This document shows, piece by piece, positions 8,621 to 64,000 of a DNA stretch of 64,000 nt. Position 1 is the stretch's first letter. Every line of letters begins with the position of its first letter. The position numbers were made by a program, and so were the translations under genes. A model generated the notes under the pieces. The model had not been told where the DNA came from. It was given only the letters and a program-made list of their open reading frames with translations, and searched no databases. Source of the stretch: Thermoanaerobaculia bacterium (GTDB taxonomy: Bacteria > Acidobacteriota > Thermoanaerobaculia > UBA5066); assembly GCA_963816185.1 (NCBI GenBank), contig CAWFJJ010000001.1, forward strand, positions 256,001-320,000, in the 5' to 3' direction.

Positions 8621-8708
8621 TCGAAGTCAGTATATCGGCGGCGCGTGGCTCGCTCCTTGCTCGGAGGACGCCGGGGGAGGCTCACCCGAGCCTTTTTGGA
8701 GGACTTAC

Positions 8709-9161
8709 ATGAAAGTGAAGGACATCATGACGGGCAGCCCTACGTTCTGCACGACCCGGACGGGGCTCGAAGAGGTCGCAAGGCTCCTTACCGAGCACGA
8801 CTGCGGCGCGATGCCGGTCGTCGATGACGACGCGTTTCCGAGGCCCATCGGAATCGTGACGGACCGCGACATCGTCTGTCGCGTCGTCGCCGCCGGAGAA
8901 GACCCGAGCCTTCTGACGGCGGGCGACTGCATGTCGAGTCCGGTGGTCACCGTCAACCCCGTGACCCGCCTCGACGTCTGCTGCGAGCTCATGGAGAGGA
9001 ACAAGATCCGGCGCCTCGTCGTCGTGGACGAGGACGGCTTCTGCTGCGGCATCGTTTCGCAGGCCGACATTGCGCGGCGTGCGACCGAAAAGACGGCCGA
9101 GGTGCTCAAGGAGCTTTCGCAGCCGACGCACGGCGCGTCGTCGGTCGCCGCGAGCATGTGA
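8709..9161 (+). CDS. CBS-domain protein
   Basis: MKVKDIMT, GAMPVVD, GIVTDRDI, GIVSQADI; GGAGG RBS. Confidence 0.88.
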   Translation: MKVKDIMTGSPTFCTTRTGLEEVARLLTEHDCGAMPVVDDDAFPRPIGIVTDRDIVCRVVAAGEDPSLLTAGDCMSSPVVTVNPVTRLDVCCELMERNKIRRLVVVDEDGFCCGIVSQADIARRATEKTAEVLKELSQPTHGASSVAASM

Positions 9162-9176
9162 GGCGGCGAGCGAGCG

Positions 9177-9668
9177 TCAGCCGATGCGCGGGCTGCGCCG
9201 CTCCATGAGGACGACGTCGCACCACGCGTCGCCGAGCTTTCCGAGGCGCTCGCGCGTGCCCACGACGCGGAAGCCGCACGCGACGTGGAGGCGGATGCTG
9301 GGTGTGTTGGCCGTTAGGATCCCGGCCTGAAGCGTCCAGAGGCCGCACGCCTCCGAGGCGCGGACGAGCTCCGTGAGGAGGCGCGCGCCGACGCCTCGCC
9401 CACGAAAGGCTTCGGCGACGAAGATGCTCTCTTCCGCGACGCCCGCGTACACGCGCCGGCTCGAGACGGGGCTCAGCGCGGTCCATCCCGCCATCGTGCC
9501 CCCCGAGACCGCCTTCAGCCGTGGCTTCGCGAGGTGCCCCGCGTCCCACTTCTCCCAGGACGGCGCCTCCGTCTCGAACGTCGCGACTCCGGTCGCGATG
9601 CCCTCGAGGTAGATCGACCGGACCTCGGGCCAGTCGGCTTCAACGAACGACTCGACGGACGTATCCAT
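9177..9668 (-). CDS. GNAT N-acetyltransferase (phosphinothricin/MnaT-like)
   Basis: IYLEGIATGVATFET, RGRGVG, N-x-x-SIRLH, GFRVVG motifs. Confidence 0.85.
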   Translation of the reverse strand: MDTSVESFVEADWPEVRSIYLEGIATGVATFETEAPSWEKWDAGHLAKPRLKAVSGGTMAGWTALSPVSSRRVYAGVAEESIFVAEAFRGRGVGARLLTELVRASEACGLWTLQAGILTANTPSIRLHVACGFRVVGTRERLGKLGDAWCDVVLMERRSPRIG

Positions 9669-9736
9669 CTCGCGCCGAGTATCTCGCACGTGGGGGACGC
9701 TAAGATCCCGGCGGCTTCGCGCTTCGAGGTGTCGCC

Positions 9737-11140
9737 ATGCGCCGCAAGAAGGTCTCTGCGCTTCTGTCTCCTCTCGTCTTCGTCGCCCGCGCTCTCTTCG
9801 CAGAAAACGCGATACCCGCCGACACCCGTGCGGCGATCGACAAGGACGTCGGCGAGGTCCTCGCGAAGACGGGGGCGCCGAGCGCCTCGATCGCGATCGT
9901 GAAAGACGGGAAGATCGCGTACGTTCACGCGTACGGCTCGGCGCGACTCGGGCCTCCCGCCGTCGTCGCAGCGCCCGCGATGCGGTACAGCATCGGTTCC
10001 GTCAGCAAACAGTTCACGTCGACGGCCATTCTTCTGCTCGCCGAAGAGGGAAAGCTGTCGCTCGACGATCGGCTCGTGCGGTGGCTGCCGGAGCTGACAC
10101 GCGCGGGAGACGTCACGATTCGCCAGCTCCTGTCGATGACGGCCGGCTATCAGGACTACTGGCCGCAGGACTACGTGATGCCGCGCATGAAAGAGCCGGT
10201 CACGGCGCACGAGATCGTCGACGGCTGGGCGAAAAAGCCGCTCGACTTCGCGCCCGGCGCGAAATGGCAGTACAGCAACACGAATTACGTCATCGCGGGG
10301 CTCATCGTCGAGAAGGCGAGCGGCACGCCGCTGTTCGACTTTCTCGAGAAGCGCGTCTTCGGGCCCCTCGGCATGACGACGGCCGTGAACACGGACGCAA
10401 CGCCCCTCGGCTCCGACGATGCGGCCGGATACCAGCGGTTCGCGCTCGGTCCGCCTCGCCCGGCGCCTAAGGAAGGGAAGGGCTGGTTGTTCGCCGCGGG
10501 CGAGCTGTCGATGACCGCCCAGGACCTCGCGCGCTGGGACATCTCGCTTATCGACCAGACGGTGATGAGACCCGCGTCGTACCGGGAGCTGGAAACGGAC
10601 GTGCGGCTCGAAAGCGGCGTGGGATCACGTTACGGGCTTGGCGTCGGGTTCGCCCTCGTCGACGGTCGAAGACTGGTCTCTCACGGCGGAGAGGTTTCGG
10701 GCTTCACGGCTCGGAACGACGTCTATCCCGACGAGCGCGCCGCCGTCATCGTGCTCGTCAACCTCGACGCGACACCGGCCCCGACCGAGATCGCGAAGAG
10801 GATCGGGAACTCATTGTTCGCCACTTCGGACGGCGGTACCAATCAAGCGGTGGAACAAGCGAAGAAGATCTTCGAAGGTCTTCGGCTCGGAAGACTCGAC
10901 CGCGCGCTTTTCACGTCGAACGCAAACGCCTACTTCAGCGAACAGGCGGTCAAGGATTTCGCGGCCAGCCTCCGCCCCTTGGGCAAGCTCCAGGAATTCA
11001 CGCAGAAATCCAGGTCTCTCCGCGGCGGCATGACGCTCCGCCGCCTGACGGCGAAGTTCGCGAAGAAGACCCTCGGCGTCACGACACTCGAGACGCCTGA
11101 CGGCAAGCTCGAGCAGTTCATGGTGGCCGCCGAGGAGTAG
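9737..11140 (+). CDS. Serine hydrolase, beta-lactamase/PBP-like family, secreted
   Basis: SxxK (GSVSKQFT), YSNTNY and HGG motifs; signal peptide. Confidence 0.9.
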   Translation: MRRKKVSALLSPLVFVARALFAENAIPADTRAAIDKDVGEVLAKTGAPSASIAIVKDGKIAYVHAYGSARLGPPAVVAAPAMRYSIGSVSKQFTSTAILLLAEEGKLSLDDRLVRWLPELTRAGDVTIRQLLSMTAGYQDYWPQDYVMPRMKEPVTAHEIVDGWAKKPLDFAPGAKWQYSNTNYVIAGLIVEKASGTPLFDFLEKRVFGPLGMTTAVNTDATPLGSDDAAGYQRFALGPPRPAPKEGKGWLFAAGELSMTAQDLARWDISLIDQTVMRPASYRELETDVRLESGVGSRYGLGVGFALVDGRRLVSHGGEVSGFTARNDVYPDERAAVIVLVNLDATPAPTEIAKRIGNSLFATSDGGTNQAVEQAKKIFEGLRLGRLDRALFTSNANAYFSEQAVKDFAASLRPLGKLQEFTQKSRSLRGGMTLRRLTAKFAKKTLGVTTLETPDGKLEQFMVAAEE

Positions 11141-46113: not shown

Positions 46114-48505
46114 GAGCGTTCCTCGCCCTCGCGCTCCTCGCCCTGCCTCTCGCCGCGTCGGCCGCCGAGCCGCGCTTCGAGAAGCGCGCCGTGACGGTGA
46201 ACAGCGTCGTATATCCCTATCAAGTCTTCGTGCCCGAGAGCTTCCTCAGCGCCTCGAAGCCTCCCGTCCTCCTCTTCCTCCACGGCGCCGGCGAGCGCGG
46301 CTCGGAGGGCGAGCACACGCAAGTGGGTCTCGGGCGCGCGATCCGGAAGGACCCGGCCCGCTGGCCGTTCCTCGTCGTCTTCCCGCAGTGTCCGAAAGGC
46401 TCGCAGTGGATCGGCGATCCCCAGAAGGCCGCCTTCCTCGCCCTCGAGGAGGCGCTCGTCGAGTTCCACGGCGACCGTGAGCGCGTGTCCCTGCTCGGAA
46501 TGTCGATGGGGGGCGCGGGAACCTGGTGGAGCGCGTTCCAAAGGCCGGGCGTATTCGCGGCGGTCGTGCCGATCTGCGGGTACGTCGTCTCGTCCCGCGG
46601 ATTTCCGATCCAGAGCTTCCGGCCGCCCGACATGCGCCGCGTCCTCGAGTCGGGCGATCCCTATGGAGTCATCGCCCGGGGACTCGGGAAGACGCCGGTG
46701 TGGGCGTTCCACGGCGACGCCGACGACACGATTCCCGTCACGGAGTCGCGTCGGATGGCGGAGGCTTTGCGCCTCTCGGGTGGAAACGCGACGTACACGG
46801 AATTCTCCGGCGTCGGACACGACGCGTGGGACCCGGCGTTCGCCGAGCCCGATCTCGTGCCCTGGCTGCTCGCCCAGCAGCGCGGCGCTCCCGGACGACG
46901 CCCGAAGCCGTCCACGACACCTGTGCTCTATACCGGAGCGACCGTATACCGCGCCTGGGACGCTGGCCCCGCGAAGGCCGCGATTCTCGTCGAAGGGGGC
47001 GGCGTGCGGTTCGTCGGCGCTGAACGCGAAGCGAGGGCGCTCGCGCCCGAGGCGCGTGTCGTCGATCTCGCGGGAGCGGTCGTCGTGCCCGGCCTCACCG
47101 ACGCGCACGGACACCTCCGCGGGCTCGGGGCGCTCCGGCGCGCGGTCGACCTCCGCGGCCTCTCGAAGGAGGAGATTCTCGACGCGCGTGAAGAGACCGC
47201 GCGGCGACGGCCGCCGCGGGCGAGTGGATTCGCGGGCGCGGCTGGGATCAGAACCGGTGGCCCGGGAAGACGTTTCCGACCGCCGCCGAGCTGACCGCCG
47301 TGTCGCCGCGGAATCCGGTCGTTCTCGGGCGCGTGGACGGGCATGCGATCTGGGTGAACGAGGCCGCGCTCGCCGCCGCGCACGTGACCGCGAAGACGAA
47401 CGATCCCGACGGCGGGCGCATCGAGCGCCTTTCGGACGGGCGCCCCGCGGGCGTCCTCGTGGACAACGCGACGGCCCTCGTATGGAACGCAATTCCCGAG
47501 TCCACGCCGGAGGAGATCGCGCACGACTATCGCGCCGCCTTCGAGGCCTGCGCGCGGGTCGGCCTGACGGGCGTGGGCGACGCCTCGGGCTCGAACGCGG
47601 AGGAGATCGGGATCCTTTCGACTCTCGCGCGCGAAAAGAAGATGCCGATCCGGGTCTACGCGACCGTGGGTCCGAAGAATCTCGACGAGGCGATCGCGAA
47701 GGGCCCGTTTCAGGAGGGGCGCCTCACCGTCCGCGCCGTCAAGATCTATGCGGACGGCGCTCTCGGGTCGCGCGGGGCCGCCCTTCTCGCGGATTACAGC
47801 GACGCGCCCGGCAATCGCGGCCTCGATGTGACGCCGCCCGAAGAGATCCGGCGTCTCGCCGAGAAGGCGCTCCGCGGGGGCTTTCAGGTGTGGACGCACG
47901 CGATCGGGGACCGCGCGAACCGGGAGACGCTCGATGCCTACCGAAAGGCGCTCGACGCCGTGCATCCCGCCGATCCGCGCATGCGCATCGAGCACGCGCA
48001 GGTCTTGTCGCTTCGCGACCTCCCGCGCTTCGCGAAGCTCGGTGTGATCGCGTCGGTGCAGCCGACGCATGCGACGTCGGACATGCCGTGGGTCGAATCC
48101 CGCCTCGGCCCCGGGCGGCTCGAGGGCGCCTACGCCTGGCGATCGCTCCTGAAATCCGGCGCCCGTCTCGCGGGCGGAAGCGACTTCGCCGTGGAATCCG
48201 AGAACCCCCTCCTCGGGATCTACGCGGCCGTGACGAGGCAGGACCTCTCGGGCCATCCGCCGGGCGGCTGGCGGAAGGAGGAAGCGCTCACGCGGGCCGA
48301 GGCGCTCCGGCTCTTCACGGCCGACAACGCCTATGCCGAGTTCGCCGAGACGCGGCGCGGACGGATCGCCCCCACGTTCGACGCGGACTTCACGGTCCTC
48401 GACCGCGACATCGTCTCCGAAAAGACGCCGGACTCCGAGATTCCGAAGGCGAAGGTGCGCATGACCGTCGTCGGCGGAGAGATCGTCTACCGGGCCTCGC
48501 CTTGA
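46110..48505 (+). CDS. Apparent fusion of alpha/beta-hydrolase esterase and amidohydrolase-3 (YtcJ-like), frameshift near 47190
   Basis: FLHGAGERG, GMSMGG, FHGDAD, GHDAW run without a stop into PGLTDAHGH; then DGH, ADGALGSRGA, HAIGDRA, RIEHAQ, GSDF. Confidence 0.75.
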
Positions 48506-53073: not shown

Positions 53074-53313
53074 TCAGGTCGAAGGTGGAGGGGTCCCTTC
53101 GGCGGGCGGAGCCGCGACGGCGGGTTTCGGGGCCGGAGGCGCGGCTGCCGGACCTGGAGATGCCGGCGCCGGAGCGGGGGGCTCGCCGTTCGGGAACGCC
53201 TCCGCGTTGCAGAAGTAGCATTTCACCTTCGGCTGAGTTGCGGCTTCCGGTACCCAGTAGAAGAAGCACTTCCCGCACGTAGGACACGTGAACAACTGCC
53301 TTCCGCCCTTCAT
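53074..53313 (-). CDS. Small zinc-ribbon protein with Pro/Ala-rich tail
   Basis: CPTC...CYFC; ATG overlaps the upstream stop (ATGA). Confidence 0.65.
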   Translation of the reverse strand: MKGGRQLFTCPTCGKCFFYWVPEAATQPKVKCYFCNAEAFPNGEPPAPAPASPGPAAAPPAPKPAVAAPPAEGTPPPST

Positions 53314-54209
53314 CGTGAGGGAGGATACGCGCCCGGAAGCTTTCGTGCGCTCCGGAGGACGAGAAGGACGAGAAGAACGGCCAGGGTGACGGTGGAGAGC
53401 GCCGAGCCTTCGGGGCCGAAGGCTCCTCCGCTCAGGGCCGGCAGGCCCGCGCCGTGGATTCCTGTTTCGAGGGCTGGCCTTCCCATCATCATCCCGCTCA
53501 CGGGGAGAGCGAGGGCGGCGAGACTGAAATTCCAGACCGCGTGGAACGCCCACGGGCCGAGGAGGCCGCCGGTGCTCCAATAGAGCCAGCCCAGCAGGGC
53601 GCCCGCAAGACCAATGTTGACGAGCGCGAGGGGCGTCACGTTCGGGTTCATCGCGTGCATCGAGGCGAACGCCCCGGACTGGCCCGCGTTCGCGAGTAGC
53701 CCGCAAAAGAGCCAGCGCCGCGCGGCGGCGCGCTCCCGAAGGGGCTCGCTCATTCCCGAAAGCTTGCCGAAGAGGAGGCGCGCAAGAAGAAGGAGCAGAG
53801 CCGCGAGGAGCGTGAGGAGGAAGGCGCGGAAAAGAAGCTCTTCGGCCAGGCTCTGCAGCACGAAAAAACCGAAGGAGGCGGGAGCCGACGCGAGCGACGG
53901 CGGACCGGGGGCAGGAGCGAACGGCGCGTAGCCGGGGGCTCGAGGCCCGAACGCTCCCAACAGGGCGGCCGGCAGCAGGACCGCCGTCAGGAGGGCCGCG
54001 GCGGCCGCGAGCCCTGAGGCGATCCCGCGCGCGAAAGGCTCGCGTGGCTCGCGGATGGAAGCTCCGAGCCGCGCGAGGAGGCCGAAGCGGAGAACGGCGA
54101 GGCCGGCGAGGCCGAGCGGAAGGGCGAGGAAGAGGCCCGACGCGAGGCGCGCGTCGAGCCAGTTTCCCATCGCCCCCGGCACCGGTGACGCGAGGGCCGC
54201 CAGGATCAC
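53310..54209 (-). CDS. CPBP/CAAX-family intramembrane metalloprotease
   Basis: EELLFR, FASMH, HAVWN, GGAFGPEGS. Confidence 0.85.
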   Translation of the reverse strand: MILAALASPVPGAMGNWLDARLASGLFLALPLGLAGLAVLRFGLLARLGASIREPREPFARGIASGLAAAAALLTAVLLPAALLGAFGPRAPGYAPFAPAPGPPSLASAPASFGFFVLQSLAEELLFRAFLLTLLAALLLLLARLLFGKLSGMSEPLRERAAARRWLFCGLLANAGQSGAFASMHAMNPNVTPLALVNIGLAGALLGWLYWSTGGLLGPWAFHAVWNFSLAALALPVSGMMMGRPALETGIHGAGLPALSGGAFGPEGSALSTVTLAVLLVLLVLRSARKLPGAYPPSR

Positions 54210-58468: not shown

Positions 58469-59800
58469 TCAGTCCGACGCGGCCTTTCCGAACGTCTCCC
58501 TGATCGCGAGCGTGAGGACACACGCGAGGAGGAGCATGCCGAGGTTCACGAGGAACGCGGCGCGATATCCCGCGACCGGATAGCGCCGTGCGCCGCCCTC
58601 GAGGACGCCGAGCCAGTGCGCATCGAGAATGCGGCCGAGGACGTTCTGCGTCAGCGCCGCTCCCAGAAAGCCGCCGGCGTTTACCGTGGCCGTCGCGATG
58701 CCGCTGAACCTCGGCGGGTTCACCTCGCGCGCGAGGGCCCACGTGAGCGTGAAACAGCTCGTCGCGAGACCCAGGAGGAAGCAGAGCGGCCCGAGCAGGG
58801 CGCGGGGCGGCCCCGCGGAGGGAACCGAGATGCAGGCCCACACGGCCGCGTAGGCGAGCGTGAACAGAATGTAGGGGAGGCGCCGCGCCCGGAAGACCTT
58901 GTCGGAAAGGAAGCCGGCCGCGGGCGCGCCGAGAATGACGCCGATACCGACGAGGGACACGATCCCGGCGGCCTCCTTCGGCGTCATCCCGTAGACGTCC
59001 CGCATCCACGGGACGGCCCAGAGGCCGGAGAAGGAAAGATACGTCCCGTACTGGCAGAAGAAGACGGCGAACATCGGCCACGTCTTTCGGTTGCCGAATA
59101 CGGTGCGATAGCCTTCCGCCACCGAAACGCGGGGGACGACGCCGCGCGGCATGGGCGGCGGGAAGCCCGCGTCCTCGGGCCGATCTTTGACCAGGGCGAG
59201 GCAGAGGCCCGCGAGGACGAGCGAAAGCACGGCCACTCCGCCGAACGTCGCGCGCCAGCCGAGGACGGCGACGACGAGCGCCAGCGGCGCCGCCGCGAGG
59301 AGGCCGCCGAGGTTTCCGGCGACCTGCGTGAGGCCAGACCACGTGCCGAACTCGTCCGGCCTCCACCACGCGCCCACCTGCTTGAGCATTCCGATGAACA
59401 CGACGGAAGCGCCCGCGCCCACGACGAGGCGCGCTCCGTACGCGACGGGCAGGATGTGCGCGGCCGCGAAGGTCGATCCGCCCGCCGCCATCATGACCGC
59501 GCCCGCCGCCACGGCGCGCCGGGGCCCCCACGCGTCCACGGCGGCGCCCACGACGAACTGCATCACGGCGAATGCGTAGAGGTACAGCGCGGCCATCGTC
59601 GCGACCTCGACTCCGGTCGCCGCAAAGCTCGCCATGAGGTCCTTCGCGAGGACGGCGGGCGCGATGCGGTGGAAGTACGAGACGACGTACACGAGCGCGA
59701 GAACACCCCAGATGCGCAGCCGGACGGCGGAGAACGTGTTCATGAAGAACCGGCAACGGGGGACGCCGCCCGTCACACCGGCGGACGCTTCCGGTGCCAC
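58469..59800 (-). CDS. MFS transporter
   Basis: YFHRIAP, GAAVDAWGPRR, GFLSDK, about 12 TM segments; start may be 59743. Confidence 0.88.
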   Translation of the reverse strand: MAPEASAGVTGGVPRCRFFMNTFSAVRLRIWGVLALVYVVSYFHRIAPAVLAKDLMASFAATGVEVATMAALYLYAFAVMQFVVGAAVDAWGPRRAVAAGAVMMAAGGSTFAAAHILPVAYGARLVVGAGASVVFIGMLKQVGAWWRPDEFGTWSGLTQVAGNLGGLLAAAPLALVVAVLGWRATFGGVAVLSLVLAGLCLALVKDRPEDAGFPPPMPRGVVPRVSVAEGYRTVFGNRKTWPMFAVFFCQYGTYLSFSGLWAVPWMRDVYGMTPKEAAGIVSLVGIGVILGAPAAGFLSDKVFRARRLPYILFTLAYAAVWACISVPSAGPPRALLGPLCFLLGLATSCFTLTWALAREVNPPRFSGIATATVNAGGFLGAALTQNVLGRILDAHWLGVLEGGARRYPVAGYRAAFLVNLGMLLLACVLTLAIRETFGKAASD

Positions 59801-61185
59801 TCCGTGCGCGACTGGTAGGCGATTCCGAGAGCGACGAGCGTCTCGTCCGAGAAGGCGCGGCCCGTGAACTGGAAGGCCGTGGGAAGACCGTTCTCGCCGA
59901 ACCCGTTCGGCACGGAGAGCGCGGGCTGGCCCACCAGGTTGCCCGCCGGAATGACCGCGGGTCCGCCGCCGAACCCGGGGTACACGTTGTCGAAGTCCGG
60001 GCCGATCGGGTAGGCGACGGTGGCCCTCGTAGGCGAGACGAGCGCGTCGAACTTCGCATAGAGCGCGTCCAGGGCCTTCTTCATCGGCGCGCGCAGGCGC
60101 AGCGCCTGGATGTAGTCCACGGCGAGCACCATGGACGCCGCGTAGCCGCCCCAGCGGTCGTTCGGGACCTTGAGGTCCTTGACGCGTCCGCTCTCGATGA
60201 GGTCGCGGAAAGCGCTCGCGCCCTCGGCCGCGACGATCGTGCCGACGGCCGGGCCGTACGGGAGCTCGGGAAATGCGACGTCGGGCACGATCTCGCAGAA
60301 GCCCCCGAGGACTTTCAGGGCCTCCTCGAAGTTCTTCCGCACCTCGGGCTGGACCTTGTCATAGGTGCCTTTGATGACGCCGATCCGGAAACGGCGGCTC
60401 TTTCCCCGCACTGCTCGTCGCGGCGTGAACACCCGCGCGACAGACGTCGGATCATCCGGATCGCGCCCCGCGATCGCGGCCATGACGAAGCCGCAGTCCT
60501 CGGCCGAGCGGCACATCGGGCCGAGCTTGTCGAGCGTCCAGCAGAGTGCCATGGCCCCGTGCCGGCTCACGCGGCCGTACGTCGGCCTGAGGCCCGTCAC
60601 GCCCGAGAACGCGGCCGGCGTGACGATCGAGCCCGACGTCTCGGACCCGATCGAGAACCCGACGAGGCCGGCGGCCGTCGCGGCGCCGGGCCCCGAGGAC
60701 GAGCCGCCCGACCAGAAGTTCGTGTTCCAGGGCGAGCGGCCGGGTCCCGTGAACGACGCATCCGCGTTGTTGTAGCCGAGGCCGCCCGCGAGCTCGACCA
60801 TCGCGAGCTTTCCGACGAGAACGGCGCCCGCCTCGTGCAGCCTCTTGACGACGGTCGCGTCTTCCTCGAAGACCTGAGCGCGATACGGCTCGGCGCCCCA
60901 CGTCGTGGGGATGTCCTTCGTCGCGAGAAGATCCTTCACGCCGTAAGGCACTCCGTGGAGCTCTCCGCGCCACTTTCCGGCCGCGATCTCCGCCTCGGCT
61001 GCCTTCGCCTCGGCGAGCGCGCGGTCGCGCGTGATCGTCACGACGGCCCCGTATTTCGGCCCGAGGCGCTCGAGCCTCTCGAGGGCGCCCTCCGCGAGCG
61101 CGACGGGCGAGATTTCTCTCGCCTTGAGCTTTTTCGAGAGTTCTGCGACGGAAAGGAAGAAGGTGTCTTCGCCGAGCGGGGCCAT
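59773..61185 (-). CDS. Amidase-signature enzyme (GatA/AtzE-like)
   Basis: LHGVPYGVKD, GGSSSG, GSETSGSI, GLRPTYG. Confidence 0.9.
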   Translation of the reverse strand: MAPLGEDTFFLSVAELSKKLKAREISPVALAEGALERLERLGPKYGAVVTITRDRALAEAKAAEAEIAAGKWRGELHGVPYGVKDLLATKDIPTTWGAEPYRAQVFEEDATVVKRLHEAGAVLVGKLAMVELAGGLGYNNADASFTGPGRSPWNTNFWSGGSSSGPGAATAAGLVGFSIGSETSGSIVTPAAFSGVTGLRPTYGRVSRHGAMALCWTLDKLGPMCRSAEDCGFVMAAIAGRDPDDPTSVARVFTPRRAVRGKSRRFRIGVIKGTYDKVQPEVRKNFEEALKVLGGFCEIVPDVAFPELPYGPAVGTIVAAEGASAFRDLIESGRVKDLKVPNDRWGGYAASMVLAVDYIQALRLRAPMKKALDALYAKFDALVSPTRATVAYPIGPDFDNVYPGFGGGPAVIPAGNLVGQPALSVPNGFGENGLPTAFQFTGRAFSDETLVALGIAYQSRTEWHRKRPPV

Positions 61186-61556
61186 CAGCGGCCTCCCGGA
61201 ATTTCCGCGAAGAAGACGACGTCCGGCTCGTCGGCGTTCGTGAGCGGAACCTTCTTCATCGCCTCGGCGCCGCGGAGGCGGCCGTCCAGCGCCTTCGCGA
61301 TCTCTGAGAGCTGCTGGCCGGATAAGTTCTTGCCCCAGCGAATGCGTACGACTTCCGTCAGAGCCTCGGCGGCCGAGGACGGGGCTTCGGGCGTCGGAAC
61401 GGGCGCCGGAACGGGTGTCGGCGCAGTCGCGGGAGACGGCGAGGGCGCCGCCTGGCCGAAGGCGGTCGCGGCTCCGGCGAGAGCGGGGGCGGCGGCGGCG
61501 AGCGCGAGGCTCTTCGCGAAGAAACGGCGCGAGGGCGAGGAGATCGGGTCGGACAT
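61185..61556 (-). CDS. Small Tat-signal protein, GatC/AtzG-like amidase partner
   Basis: SRRFF Tat motif, Pro-rich linker, C-terminal PLTNADEPDVVF; TGATG coupling to the amidase. Confidence 0.7.
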   Translation of the reverse strand: MSDPISSPSRRFFAKSLALAAAAPALAGAATAFGQAAPSPSPATAPTPVPAPVPTPEAPSSAAEALTEVVRIRWGKNLSGQQLSEIAKALDGRLRGAEAMKKVPLTNADEPDVVFFAEIPGGR

Positions 61557-61597
61557 TTGTCGCCTCCGTCAAAGTTCCCGTTTCGTTCGAATCTATC

Positions 61598-61626
61598 TTG
61601 ATTCCGCGCGCGCCGCTCCCCATAAT
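61598..61626 (+). promoter_or_regulatory. Sigma70-type promoter of the gltB leader
   Basis: TTGATT (61598-61603), 17-bp spacer, CATAAT (61621-61626). Confidence 0.7.
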
Positions 61627-61635
61627 TCCGTCGCG

Positions 61636-61746
61636 ATGGCAAAGACCTCGGCGATCACCACGAAGACCACGAAGAACGTGGGCGGGGCCGTCATTGGCCT
61701 CGTCCTTACCGAGCGTGCCACTCCGGGGAGCGGGCGAGGGGATTAG
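61636..61746 (+). CDS. Putative attenuator leader peptide (36 aa)
   Basis: MAKTSAITTKTTKNVGGAVIGLVLTERATPGSGRGD*; its 3' end contains the antiterminator strand. Confidence 0.65.
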   Translation: MAKTSAITTKTTKNVGGAVIGLVLTERATPGSGRGD

Positions 61747-61769
61747 GTACACGGTCACACGGAAATCCC

Positions 61770-61801
61770 AAGGCCCGCTCCCACGAGGGAGCGGGCTTTT
61801 T
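61770..61801 (+). terminator. Intrinsic terminator (attenuator) upstream of gltB
   Basis: GCCCGCTCCC-ACGA-GGGAGCGGGC followed by TTTTT. Confidence 0.85.
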
Positions 61802-61818
61802 CGTTGTGGAGGAAGCAC

Positions 61819-63999
61819 GTGGCGAGAGAGCGCGAACCGCGACGGTGGACCGACGGGGTCAGCCCCGCGCGGAACCCGTTCCGCGAGCAGGACGCGTGCG
61901 GCGTCGGCTTCGTCGCCCATCCCCGCGACTCTTCACACCGGGTCCTGAGGCTCGCGCTCGGGGGGCTTGCTCGTGTCGCCCACCGAGGCGCGACGGGTGC
62001 CGACCGTACGGGGGACGGTGCCGGGATCCTGACTCGCATCCCCGAGGAGCTCTTCCGGCGCGAGGCGGCGCGGCTGGCGATTCGTCTCCCCGAGGGCGAG
62101 CCCTTCGCGATCGGGACGTTCTTCCTGCCGCGCGTGAACGACAGCCAGCTCTGGTCCATGGACCTCGTCGAGAAGGCGCTGGCCGACGAAGGGCTCCCGT
62201 TCCTGGGATGGCGCAGCGTGCCCGTCCGGACCGACCGGCTGGGCCAGGCGGCGGAAGAGGGCCGGCCCGCGATCTTTCACGCCTTCGTCGGTCCACCGCG
62301 CGACACTGACGCCGACGAGTGGGAACGCGTGCTCTACCTGGCGGGACGAGTCGCCGCGCGGCGCGCGCGGCTGGCGAGGCTCCACGGCTTCTGCGTCGTG
62401 TCGCTCTCGTCGAGGACCATCGTCTACAAGGCGCTCCTGACCGGGACCGAGCTGAAGCCGTTCTATTCCGATCTCGAGGATTCCGATTACGAGACGCCGA
62501 TCGCCGTCTTCCACCAGCGGTACTCCACGAACACGGTCCCGAGCTGGAGCCTCGCGCAGCCGTTCCACCTGCTCGCGCACAACGGCGAGATCAACACCCT
62601 GTGGGGAAACCGCAACGCGATGCGCGCGCGCGAGCCCGAGCTCTCGTCCCCGGTCTGGAACGGCCGCCTCGCCCGCCTGCTGCCCGTTCTCACCGACGAG
62701 GGCAGCGACTCGACGAGCCTCGACGAAGCGCTCGAGCTCCTCGTGCGTTCGGGCCGCGACCCGCTCCACGCGCTCACGATGCTCATTCCCGACGCGCCCC
62801 AGAGCGAGGCGGATGAAGCCCTGCGCGCGTTCTACGACTTCCACGCGGGTCTCGTCGAGCCGTGGGACGGCCCCGCGGCCGTCGCTTTCTCGGACGGGAT
62901 CGTGGCCGGCGCGCACCTGGACCGCAGCGGCCTCCGGCCCCTCCGCTACAAGATCGCGCAGGACGGGATCGTCGAGGCCGCCTCCGAAGCGGGGATCGTG
63001 GACATCGAGCCCGAAGACGTCATGGAGAGCGGGCGCCTCGGCCCGGGCGAGACGATCGCCGTCGACACCGCGACGGGGGAGGTGCTCCGCGACGCCGACG
63101 TGAAGGCGCGCCTCGCCGCGCGGCGGCCGTGGGGCGCGTGGGTGAAGCGGCACCTGGTGAACGTGACGAAGCCGACGGTCCCTCTCCTGCCGCCGCCCGA
63201 CGCGGACCTCGTCAGGTGCCAGAGCGCGCGAGGCTGGGGCGTCGAGGACGTCCGGTACGTCCTCGCCCCGATGGCGGCCGGCACCGAGCCGGTCTTCAGC
63301 ATGGGCGACGATGCGCCCATTCCGCCGCTCGCGAAGTCGCCTCAGCCGCTCTACACGTTCTTCCGCCAGCGCTTCGCGCAGGTCACGAATCCCCCGATCG
63401 ACTCGCTGCGCGAGACGCTCGTCATGTCGCTGCGCATGGATCTCGGGAAGGGCGGCTCGCTCCTTCTCGAGGAGCCGGGCGACGCCCACTTCTTGACCCT
63501 GGAGCATCCGGTCCTCCTCGAGGACGAGATGGCCGGCGTCCTCTCCGCGTCGGCGTTCAGGCCGCTGACGCTCGACGCGACGTTCCTCGCCGCCGACGGA
63601 GCACCGGGTCTGACCGCCGCGCTCGAGGACCTGTCGCGGCGCGCCGAGGACGCCGTGCGCGCCGGCTCGGAGATCCTCGTGATCACCGACCGTGGCGCTA
63701 CCGAAGAGCGCGTCGCGATCCCCTCGCTCCTCGCCCTCGGCGCGGTCCGCGAGCACCTCCTGCGGACGGGACTCCGCTACCGAGTCGGGCTCGTCGTCGA
63801 GTCCGGAGACGCGCGTGACGGACACCATTTCGCCGTACTCCATGGGTTCGGCGCCGAGGCGGTACATCCCTGGCTCGCGCTCGCGTCCGTGCGGGCGCTG
63901 GCCGCCCGGGAAGACCTTCCCGGTGACGTCGCGGCCACGTTCCGGTCGACGGTCGAGAAGAGCCTGCGCAAGGTCATCGCGAAGATGGGCATCTCCGCG
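61819..63999 (+). CDS. gltB: Glutamate synthase large subunit, runs off the window
   Basis: Manual translation from GTG 61819 (GGAGG RBS): EQDACGVGFVA, HRGA, GDGAG, HQRYSTNT, HNGEINT, EPWDGPA, FAQVTNPPID, KMGIS. Confidence 0.95.
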   Translation, partial: MAREREPRRWTDGVSPARNPFREQDACGVGFVAHPRDSSHRVLRLALGGLARVAHRGATGADRTGDGAGILTRIPEELFRREAARLAIRLPEGEPFAIGTFFLPRVNDSQLWSMDLVEKALADEGLPFLGWRSVPVRTDRLGQAAEEGRPAIFHAFVGPPRDTDADEWERVLYLAGRVAARRARLARLHGFCVVSLSSRTIVYKALLTGTELKPFYSDLEDSDYETPIAVFHQRYSTNTVPSWSLAQPFHLLAHNGEINTLWGNRNAMRAREPELSSPVWNGRLARLLPVLTDEGSDSTSLDEALELLVRSGRDPLHALTMLIPDAPQSEADEALRAFYDFHAGLVEPWDGPAAVAFSDGIVAGAHLDRSGLRPLRYKIAQDGIVEAASEAGIVDIEPEDVMESGRLGPGETIAVDTATGEVLRDADVKARLAARRPWGAWVKRHLVNVTKPTVPLLPPPDADLVRCQSARGWGVEDVRYVLAPMAAGTEPVFSMGDDAPIPPLAKSPQPLYTFFRQRFAQVTNPPIDSLRETLVMSLRMDLGKGGSLLLEEPGDAHFLTLEHPVLLEDEMAGVLSASAFRPLTLDATFLAADGAPGLTAALEDLSRRAEDAVRAGSEILVITDRGATEERVAIPSLLALGAVREHLLRTGLRYRVGLVVESGDARDGHHFAVLHGFGAEAVHPWLALASVRALAAREDLPGDVAATFRSTVEKSLRKVIAKMGISA

Positions 64000-64000
64000 C

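Follow-up and report, generated by a model that had tools for sequence, protein, structure and literature searches.

Organization of the region upstream of gltB

The 64,000-nucleotide (nt) stretch of Thermoanaerobaculia DNA analysed here, referred to as the window (68% G+C), ends within gltB, the gene for the large subunit of glutamate synthase (GOGAT). Together with glutamine synthetase, this enzyme forms a main entry point of nitrogen into biomass. The gltB of the window matched the Pfam families GATase_2 (2.2e-143) and Glu_syn_central (3.8e-83), and the full-length homologue in the related locus L001 matched NCBIfam NF008730, 'glutamate synthase large subunit', with 1589 bits against a cut-off of 1047. 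For the region before the gene (61598-61821), the original prediction had proposed a leader-peptide transcription attenuator, composed of a promoter, a near-leaderless 36-codon open reading frame (ORF), a terminator, and an antiterminator involving a second copy of GGGAGCGGGC. All of these parts were present, some with slightly corrected coordinates:

61598-61603, + strand: −35 hexamer TTGATT, identical in 13 of 14 aligned sequences (TTGCTT in L014)
61621-61626, + strand: −10 hexamer CATAAT, after a 17-nt spacer; relatives have CATACT or GATAAT at the same place
61636-61746, + strand: leader ORF of 36 codons plus TAG (ATG at 61636, TAG at 61744-61746), encoding the peptide MAKTSAITTKTTKNVGGAVIGLVLTERATPGSGRGD
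61682-61703, + strand: hairpin 0:1, with 61682-61690 paired to 61695-61703, within the ORF and taking up most of region 1 (minimum free energy, MFE, folds)
61698-61705, + strand: region 1, CCTCGTCC, complementary to GGGCGAGG in region 2 (RNAalifold consensus helix)
61721-61744, + strand: region 2, the 5′ arm of the antiterminator, extending over the last codons of the leader into the first base of its stop
61764-61787, + strand: region 3, the 3′ arm of the antiterminator, overlapping the 5′ arm of the terminator (61770-61782)
61770-61801, + strand: intrinsic terminator with a 13-bp stem (61770-61782 with 61787-61799), a 4-nt loop (ACGA), and a T-run at 61797-61801
61808-61813, + strand: Shine-Dalgarno sequence of gltB, GGAGGA, 6 nt past the T-run (read from the sequence)
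61819-64000, + strand: gltB, with a GTG start, continuing beyond the end of the window

The TTGATT/CATAAT pair was the sole promoter-like (sigma-70-like) site in 61100-62100, where 0.0 such sites were expected (50 shuffles); a sigma-54 site of the form GG-N10-GC was not seen in the leader by eye. The leader ATG follows the −10 hexamer at a distance of 9 nt and has no Shine-Dalgarno sequence, making the ORF near-leaderless. The terminator, with 9 G-C pairs among the 13 of its stem, ends 18 nt before the gltB start codon. The two antiterminator arms, each of 24 nt, are 79% complementary, and the helix that they form excludes the terminator. A promoter of gltB's own behind the terminator had been named as evidence against the original prediction; neither the window nor the two of 13 relatives scanned (L004 and L002) showed a promoter-like site in that position.

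The stretch 61630-61805 folded better than 200 of 200 shuffled sequences (z = −3.87). A scan of the whole window for hairpins followed by a T-run, with our own criteria (stem of at least 7 pairs, at least 5 of them G-C, and a T-rich tail), gave only 2 strong sites, one of which was the leader terminator, located in a 5′ leader and not at a gene end. It stands out because canonical terminators of this kind are very rare in a window of 68% G+C, in which most genes presumably end transcription by another route. The second copy of GGGAGCGGGC was located at 61726-61735, and three of the four exact occurrences in the 64 kb, on either strand, fell inside a single 70-nt part of the leader region. Its assignment as a dispersed repeat of the repetitive extragenic palindromic (REP) type was rejected, as the count of one-mismatch copies was at chance level (26 vs. 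25.9 expected) and only the local exact cluster was special.

Conservation and distribution of the leader

Related loci were collected in one scan of genome contigs with the N-terminus of GltB, which matched 198 stretches; 144 of these encode relatives, of which 80 were kept. Fifteen of the 80 (L001-L015) are close relatives, with GltB 76-91% identical to that of the window, and all derive from metagenome-assembled genomes (MAGs) of Thermoanaerobaculia or Acidobacteriota. The other kept loci were at most 52% identical and mostly from Chloroflexota. L012 begins inside gltB, without upstream sequence, and was excluded from the leader comparison. The promoter, ORF, region 2, and terminator were found upstream of gltB in 13 of the 14 close relatives with upstream sequence, confirming that the attenuator geometry proposed before the gltB ribosome-binding site (RBS) is real. 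These 13 leader-bearing relatives and the window constitute the 14 sequences compared below, which fall into three divergent sub-families, one of them with 8 members. The terminator was present in 13/13 leader-bearing relatives, 52-57 nt after the leader stop.

The remaining relative, L009 (GltB 76% identical), has kept a TTGATT/CATAGT promoter and the start of the divergent upstream gene, while both the leader ORF and the terminator hairpin are gone: its −10 hexamer is directly followed by the TTTTCGGT tail and gltB (L009:1-200, aligned to window 61540-61900). Either the leader was lost from L009 by natural deletion, or L009 shows the arrangement that preceded its insertion. Since the promoter is there joined straight to gltB, it evidently serves gltB, and the leader is a discrete, separable module.

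Terminator-like hairpins were sought up to 350 nt upstream of gltB in 76 loci, omitting L012, L070, L074, and L076, whose match starts inside the gene at a contig end. They were found in 16 loci, namely the 13 leader-bearing relatives and, as weak and unrelated structures, L038, L067, and L079. Two of the latter, from Chloroflexota/Thermomicrobiales (L038:5871-5898 and L067:1023-1050), each have, some 70 nt before gltB, a small hairpin of similar form (CCCGA...TCGGG, then ATTTTC), which may be an unrelated leader element of that phylum.

A covariance model (R1) built on the 3′ 130 nt of the 14 leaders and run on the window and the 80 loci (962,314 bases) recovered the 14 sites used for training (97.8-142.9 bits), and no other match exceeded 19.7 bits. 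Two weak matches in the window, at 46572-46682 (− strand) and 53309-53432 (+ strand), were discarded as noise, being ordinary sequence with no T-run or terminator. A profile of the 14 leader peptides, run against 1.84 billion representative proteins, returned 4 representative clusters, all of them the same leader and one named 'hypothetical protein' by its source; a homology search with one 54-amino-acid (aa) database leader protein (P0004) returned P0004 alone. Judging from these searches, the element looks confined to this Thermoanaerobaculia/Acidobacteriota clade.

Maintenance of the leader reading frame

The leader ORF was present in 14/14 sequences, with its start 9 nt after the −10 hexamer in each (13 ATG, one GTG) and lengths of 33, 34, 36, and 39 codons (99, 102, 108, and 117 nt). 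As a test of frame, gap runs were counted in a codon-blind MAFFT alignment. Inside the ORF they were multiples of three in 6/6 cases (3, 3, 3, 9, 9, and 12), vs. 0/8 downstream of the leader stop (1, 1, 1, 1, 2, 2, 4, and 5). The stop codon, TAG in 12 sequences and TAA in 2, was retained despite the replacement of TAG by TAA in L007 and an insertion in L001, and the ORFs of the relatives end in ...GRGD-TAG/TAA. Frame maintenance was thus added to the conserved geometry in support of the original prediction.

The peptides themselves diverged strongly. The N-terminal half was wholly different between sub-families (e.g., MKSLAASVIASILTGDGA... vs. MMNSKAKATRSIKTS...), and the invariant residues were M1, L22, V23, L24, G33, R34, G35, and D36, with R27 nearly invariant; among the leader variants in the database, one ends in GRGE and another has V at the position of R27. 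An impression of synonymous variation at the K-R codon was anecdotal and was dropped.

Alternative RNA structures

In the RNAalifold consensus of the 14 transcripts, region 1 (CCUCGUYC, containing the L-V-L codons) was paired with GGGCGAGG in region 2. The consensus also held a small variable hairpin and the terminator, extended by AACGGAA/UUUUCGUU pairs. Across the 14 sequences, the structure expected for the OFF state (1:2 helix plus terminator) was 97.8% paired, vs. 40–64% in slid controls, with 99.1% of cells paired and zero double-sided changes in the 1:2 helix and 96.8% of cells paired in the terminator stem. The competing 2:3 helix was paired in 82.6% of cells, vs. 29–55% in slid controls, with 1 double-sided change. 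The core of region 2, CGGGCGAGGGGA (61731-61742, 12 nt), was invariant in 14/14, and AACGGAA and CCCC were nearly so.

Predicted folds were also compared for chains of increasing length. In a chain ending at region 2, region 1 was held in a predicted 9-12-bp hairpin with an upstream 'region 0' in 10/14 sequences; in the sub-family of 8 this 0:1 hairpin had 1 double-sided change among its 12 pairs. As long as region 3 has not been transcribed, the predicted partner of region 2 was a 5′ segment of the ORF in 11/14 and region 1 in 3/14. With the chain ending at region 3, the 2:3 helix was the MFE structure in 11/14, and at full length the terminator form was the MFE structure in 13/14, winning by 2-13 kcal/mol in the relatives.

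Beyond the terminator stem, the conserved AACGGAA (within window 61759-61805; alignment columns 141-147 with 184-189) can pair with UUUUCGUU past the terminator. Such pairing would lengthen the terminator helix across the U-tract, and L013 has a compensatory C-G to U-A change there.

Ribosome geometry and proposed mechanism

The stop codon of the leader begins at the last base of region 2. We modelled the effect of a ribosome by placing a 28-nt footprint at each leader codon and then assessing the pairing. The 2:3 helix was abolished in 14/14 sequences when the A site was at the stop or within the final 7-8 codons, and was allowed in 14/14 when the A site was at codon −9 or earlier. The codons at −9 and earlier include the invariant L-V-L and the following K/E-R codons. 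With 17 nt between the leader stop and region 3, the terminator would stay clear of a terminating ribosome.

This arrangement is best explained by a ribosome-mediated leader-peptide transcription attenuator of the trp/ilv type controlling gltB, and we consider this interpretation as a whole reasonably probable. Taken separately, it is very probable that an attenuator acts on gltB, and fairly probable that the attenuation is ribosome-mediated. Transcription would start 1-4 nt before the leader ATG, as judged from the 9-nt distance to the −10 hexamer, and the leader would be translated as a near-leaderless ORF. If no ribosome is present, region 2 would first be captured by an upstream partner, either the 5′ segment of the ORF or region 1. 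A ribosome that proceeds unhindered into the final 7-8 codons, or sits at the stop, would cover region 2, so that the 3:4 terminator would form and transcription would end 18 nt before the gltB start. A ribosome stalled further upstream, with its A site at codon −9 or earlier, would leave region 2 free to pair with region 3; this would consume the 5′ arm of the terminator and allow RNA polymerase to read into gltB. The signal would most likely be slow translation caused by amino-acid shortage, and gltB is probably turned up when ribosomes stall for want of amino acids. Because glutamate is the amino donor for most amino acids, we infer that such a shortage would call for more GOGAT.

Several observations weigh against this interpretation. 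On the coding side, no coding signature was detected in the substitutions (extra states per codon position of 45/42/44), and the pairwise codon differences among the leader peptides (370 synonymous vs. 1437 non-synonymous) gave no indication of amino-acid selection. An open frame of 36 codons is not rare at 65–68% GC (chance of about 0.4 by our own estimate), and in the leader of the window the other two frames are open as well. Leaderless translation in this phylum, and with it translation of the leader ORF, is itself presumed from the sequences. No tandem run of a single regulatory amino acid occurs in the leader, and the invariant L-V-L and G-R-G-D coincide with RNA blocks. Furthermore, the 14 sequences share kinship, so that counts of 14/14 are not independent.

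On the structural side, the original prediction had named conservation and covariation in relatives as a check. The layout and the complementarity were conserved, and covariation of the 1:2, 2:3, and 3:4 helices was not significant, with 111-187 of 500 shuffles reaching the observed scores (187/500 for 2:3). These tests were uninformative because the pairing cores are invariant, and the structures therefore appear to rest on conserved complementarity and not on compensatory change. Equilibrium folding disagreed among sequences, the window being the exception in which the antiterminator was the full-length MFE structure (−79.3 vs. −75.3 kcal/mol). Equilibrium folding of ribosome-masked transcripts was not used for naming control codons, as the favourable upstream stall positions differed between sequences. 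The upstream partner of region 2, the putative anti-antiterminator, likewise varied between sub-families. Matches to the Rfam families Trp_leader (RF00513; 20.0 bits vs. a gathering score of 41) and Thr_leader (RF00506; 16.4 vs. 55) were far below threshold and mainly driven by the terminator. Lastly, the anatomy, conservation, frame maintenance, and pairing potential are properties of the sequences, from which we infer the transcription start, the translation of the leader, the termination, and the signal.

The combination of a maintained frame with a freely varying peptide can be read to mean that the frame of the leader matters and its product does not. A frame kept without amino-acid selection is what is predicted for a cis-acting leader peptide, and it argues against a functional micropeptide.

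Alternative explanations

An attenuator that works independently of ribosomes was considered unlikely. In this case, CGGGCGAGGGGAYUAR and AACGGAA-CCCC would constitute a riboswitch aptamer or the site of an RNA-binding protein similar in type to PyrR, TRAP, or a glutamine sensor. This factor would decide whether the antiterminator or the terminator forms, and the presence of the ORF would be incidental. The strongest conservation is indeed at the RNA level, in the invariant 12-nt core of region 2 and the nearly invariant AACGGAA and CCCC, the leader peptide is free of amino-acid-level selection, and glutamate synthase genes already have riboswitch candidates, namely the gltD motif and, occasionally, the glutamine riboswitch (PMC8632094). 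A non-coding aptamer, however, would not be expected to show indels that preserve a frame in the ORF only (6/6 vs. 0/8 outside), a fixed start, and a stop kept via TAG/TAA. Neither was a multi-stem junction with covariation observed. In a search of 61400-62000 with Rfam 15, four sub-threshold matches were obtained at E ≤ 10 (Trp_leader, Thr_leader, TCV_Pr, and ftsZ-DE), none at E ≤ 0.1 and none a riboswitch. The whole window gave 0 matches at gathering score to the families of Rfam 15, which include the glutamine riboswitch and the T-box (membership of the gltD motif in Rfam 15 was not checked).

The invariant residues are confined to the C-terminal half of the peptide (L22, V23, L24, G33, R34, G35, and D36, with R27 nearly so), the position of the stop codon is fixed, and a ribosome at the stop masked region 2 in 14/14 modelled sequences. 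These features would also suit a metabolite-sensing arrest peptide, in which L-V-L...G-R-G-D-stop stalls the ribosome near or at the stop when glutamine, glutamate, or 2-oxoglutarate is abundant, keeping region 2 covered and enforcing termination. The logic would be similar to that of TnaC and SpeFL with the opposite sign, and would amount to direct end-product feedback on gltB transcription through the ribosome tunnel. We regard this as improbable, since every invariant residue coincides with an RNA pairing block and is explained without the peptide. Furthermore, the spacing of L-V-L and the stop varies by one codon among sub-families, the database variants tolerate a GRGE end and a V in place of the near-invariant R, and the ratio of synonymous to non-synonymous differences in the C-terminal half (212:561) is neutral-like.

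Slightly less probable still is an independent small gene or small RNA (a transcript of about 165 nt, or a micropeptide) with its own promoter and terminator, gltB being expressed by constitutive leak-through or from an unrecognised promoter: promoter, ORF, and terminator do form a complete unit, and gene callers predicted the peptide as a hypothetical protein (the 4 representative clusters), but in the window only 18 nt separate the terminator from the gltB start, no promoter-like site follows the terminator (window, L004, and L002), L009 has the same promoter directly on gltB, the unit was found only upstream of gltB in the R1 search of the window and the 80 loci, the peptide lacks amino-acid selection, and a mutually exclusive 2:3 helix would be purposeless in a free-standing gene.

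Candidate amino-acid signal

If gltB is controlled by a ribosome-mediated attenuator, the leader codons should indicate the amino acid that is sensed. The original prediction had named two groups of control codons, ITTKTTKN and VIGLVLT, and had inferred charging of Thr, Lys, and branched-chain tRNAs as the signal. The first group did not hold up, as the sub-families have entirely different N-terminal halves, and the Thr/Lys-rich stretch seen in the window has no counterpart outside its own sub-family. Of the second group, the L-V-L part was invariant in 14/14 and flanked by Ile/Val, with 4-5 of the 7 surrounding codons being Ile, Leu, or Val in the sequences read. These codons (CTC GTC CTT, 61699-61707, spanned by region 1) occupy precisely the position at which stalling of a ribosome would leave region 2 free. 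The same codons, however, form the conserved RNA block CCUCGUYC that pairs with region 2, and codon identity and RNA pairing are therefore inseparable here. Gln and Glu codons were not enriched in the 14 leaders. Our best guess, a tentative one, is that the branched-chain amino acids (Leu, Val, and Ile) are the main signal. It is equally tentative that nitrogen assimilation would be coupled in cis to the charging of Leu, Val, and Ile tRNAs, as a ribosome-based counterpart of control by the leucine-responsive protein Lrp.

In the relatives, the genes that come after gltB (about 1,500 aa) in the same orientation encode a DUF1499 protein and/or an FmdA_AmdA (formamidase/acetamidase-like) protein. 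A look for ilv, leu, or thr genes in the downstream operon had been suggested as a check: neither these genes nor gltD were seen downstream of gltB in the relatives, and no ilv, leu, or thr gene was found among the window ORFs scanned with Pfam (38 of a set of 52 chosen by length and GC3). An operon of gltB, DUF1499, and FmdA_AmdA-like genes does not make, or charge to tRNA, an amino acid enriched in the leader, so that this feature of classical attenuators is absent. The genes following gltB are located as follows (DUF1499 and/or FmdA_AmdA, same strand as gltB):

L001:10550-11557
L002:5070-5495
L004:11397-12395
L005:10475-10897
L006:10530-11555
L007:10484-11946
L015:10465-11911

Comparison with known regulators

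The classical leader-peptide attenuators of enterobacteria are those of trp, his, leu, thr, ilvGMEDA, and pheA. As in these, the 1:2, 2:3, and 3:4 helices of the gltB leader are mutually exclusive, the stop codon is placed such that a terminating ribosome would cover region 2, and the terminator lies just before the first gene. In contrast to them, the gltB leader has no tandem regulatory codons, its start is near-leaderless and not dependent on a Shine-Dalgarno sequence, an extra 0:1 hairpin and a partner for region 2 in the 5′ segment are predicted, and the enzyme makes no amino acid enriched in the leader.

A closer parallel was found in the ilvBNC attenuator of Corynebacterium glutamicum, which is described by a three-hairpin model of anti-antiterminator, antiterminator, and terminator, and whose proven branched-chain leader peptide IlvL (MTIIRLVVVTARRLP) has its start codon 1 nt from the transcript start (PMC11857589). 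The two systems share an ORF without a Shine-Dalgarno sequence that begins at or within a few nt of the transcript start (a presumed start in the gltB leader), a hydrophobic Ile/Leu/Val core flanked by Arg (here ..IRLVLVKRTR..; a likeness judged by eye), and alternative hairpins ending in an intrinsic terminator before the first structural gene. They differ in the target, which is nitrogen assimilation (gltB) and not branched-chain synthesis, in the length of the leader (33-39 codons vs. 15), in the lack of a Val triplet in the gltB leader, and in the host, Acidobacteriota vs. Actinomycetota; the element described here is known from sequence alone.

For glutamate synthase genes, the nearest published item is the gltD motif, a riboswitch candidate of Selenomonadales/Veillonellales (Negativicutes), and in some cases a glutamine riboswitch also accompanies GOGAT genes (PMC8632094). 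Both resemble the gltB leader in being cis-acting 5′ elements before a GOGAT gene. They are ORF-free structured RNAs thought to bind a ligand, and the gltD motif appears to occlude the RBS, whereas the gltB leader has a frame-conserved ORF and a terminator/antiterminator switch. Besides a few such riboswitch candidates, the known controls of glutamate synthase are DNA-binding regulators. In Escherichia coli, those acting on gltBDF are Lrp, IHF, Crp, and ArgR, and the action of Lrp there is reported to be insensitive to leucine (PMC1784095). Control by Lrp and ArgR provides a precedent for tying GOGAT to regulators of amino-acid status, namely a leucine-responsive protein and the arginine repressor. 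It is exerted in E. coli on initiation by DNA-binding proteins, whereas it would act here on elongation and termination by way of the ribosome.

In line with the original statement that no attenuator was known for gltB, the literature searched yielded no description of a leader-peptide attenuator for gltB, or for Acidobacteriota/Thermoanaerobaculia; most subscription journals were outside this search, so that absence from it is not proof. If the proposed attenuator is real, it would be the first one described for gltB and for Acidobacteriota, it would show that leader-peptide attenuation can also act outside the operon of the amino acid that is sensed, and it would mean that nitrogen assimilation is linked directly to the status of translation in an uncultured lineage of soils and sediments. 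The family is a narrow one (14 sites among the window and 80 GltB loci; 4 peptide clusters), and combines a textbook class of mechanism with an unusual target gene. The leader-less L009 and the three divergent sub-families provide natural material for comparison.

Gene neighbourhood and additional observations

Upstream of the leader in the window, a 123-aa ORF, an amidase, and a major facilitator superfamily (MFS) transporter are arranged divergently. The 123-aa ORF (61185-61556, − strand) has a twin-arginine-like N-terminus, SRRFFAKSLALAAAAPALAGAATAFG, and no family match, and stands directly upstream of the amidase (window 59773-61556). The amidase (PF01425) scored best against GatA and AtzE-like models, below all cut-offs. 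The 123-aa ORF and the amidase may represent a small subunit paired with its amidase. With the FmdA_AmdA gene downstream and the divergent amidase upstream, the neighbourhood of gltB looks like one of amide-nitrogen scavenging.

Two further observations concerned the relatives. In the sub-family of 8 sequences, a block reading CGGGGCACTAAG(T/A)A is conserved, positioned after the terminator and before the RBS of gltB (e.g., L003:5945-5985 and L004:5945-6000). The block is absent from the window, whose spacer is only 18 nt, and no promoter-like site was found there in L004. In L010 (8682-8712), the frame of gltB breaks about 903 codons past the start of the match and resumes in another frame (ORF 8682-10619), reflecting either a frameshift or an assembly error.

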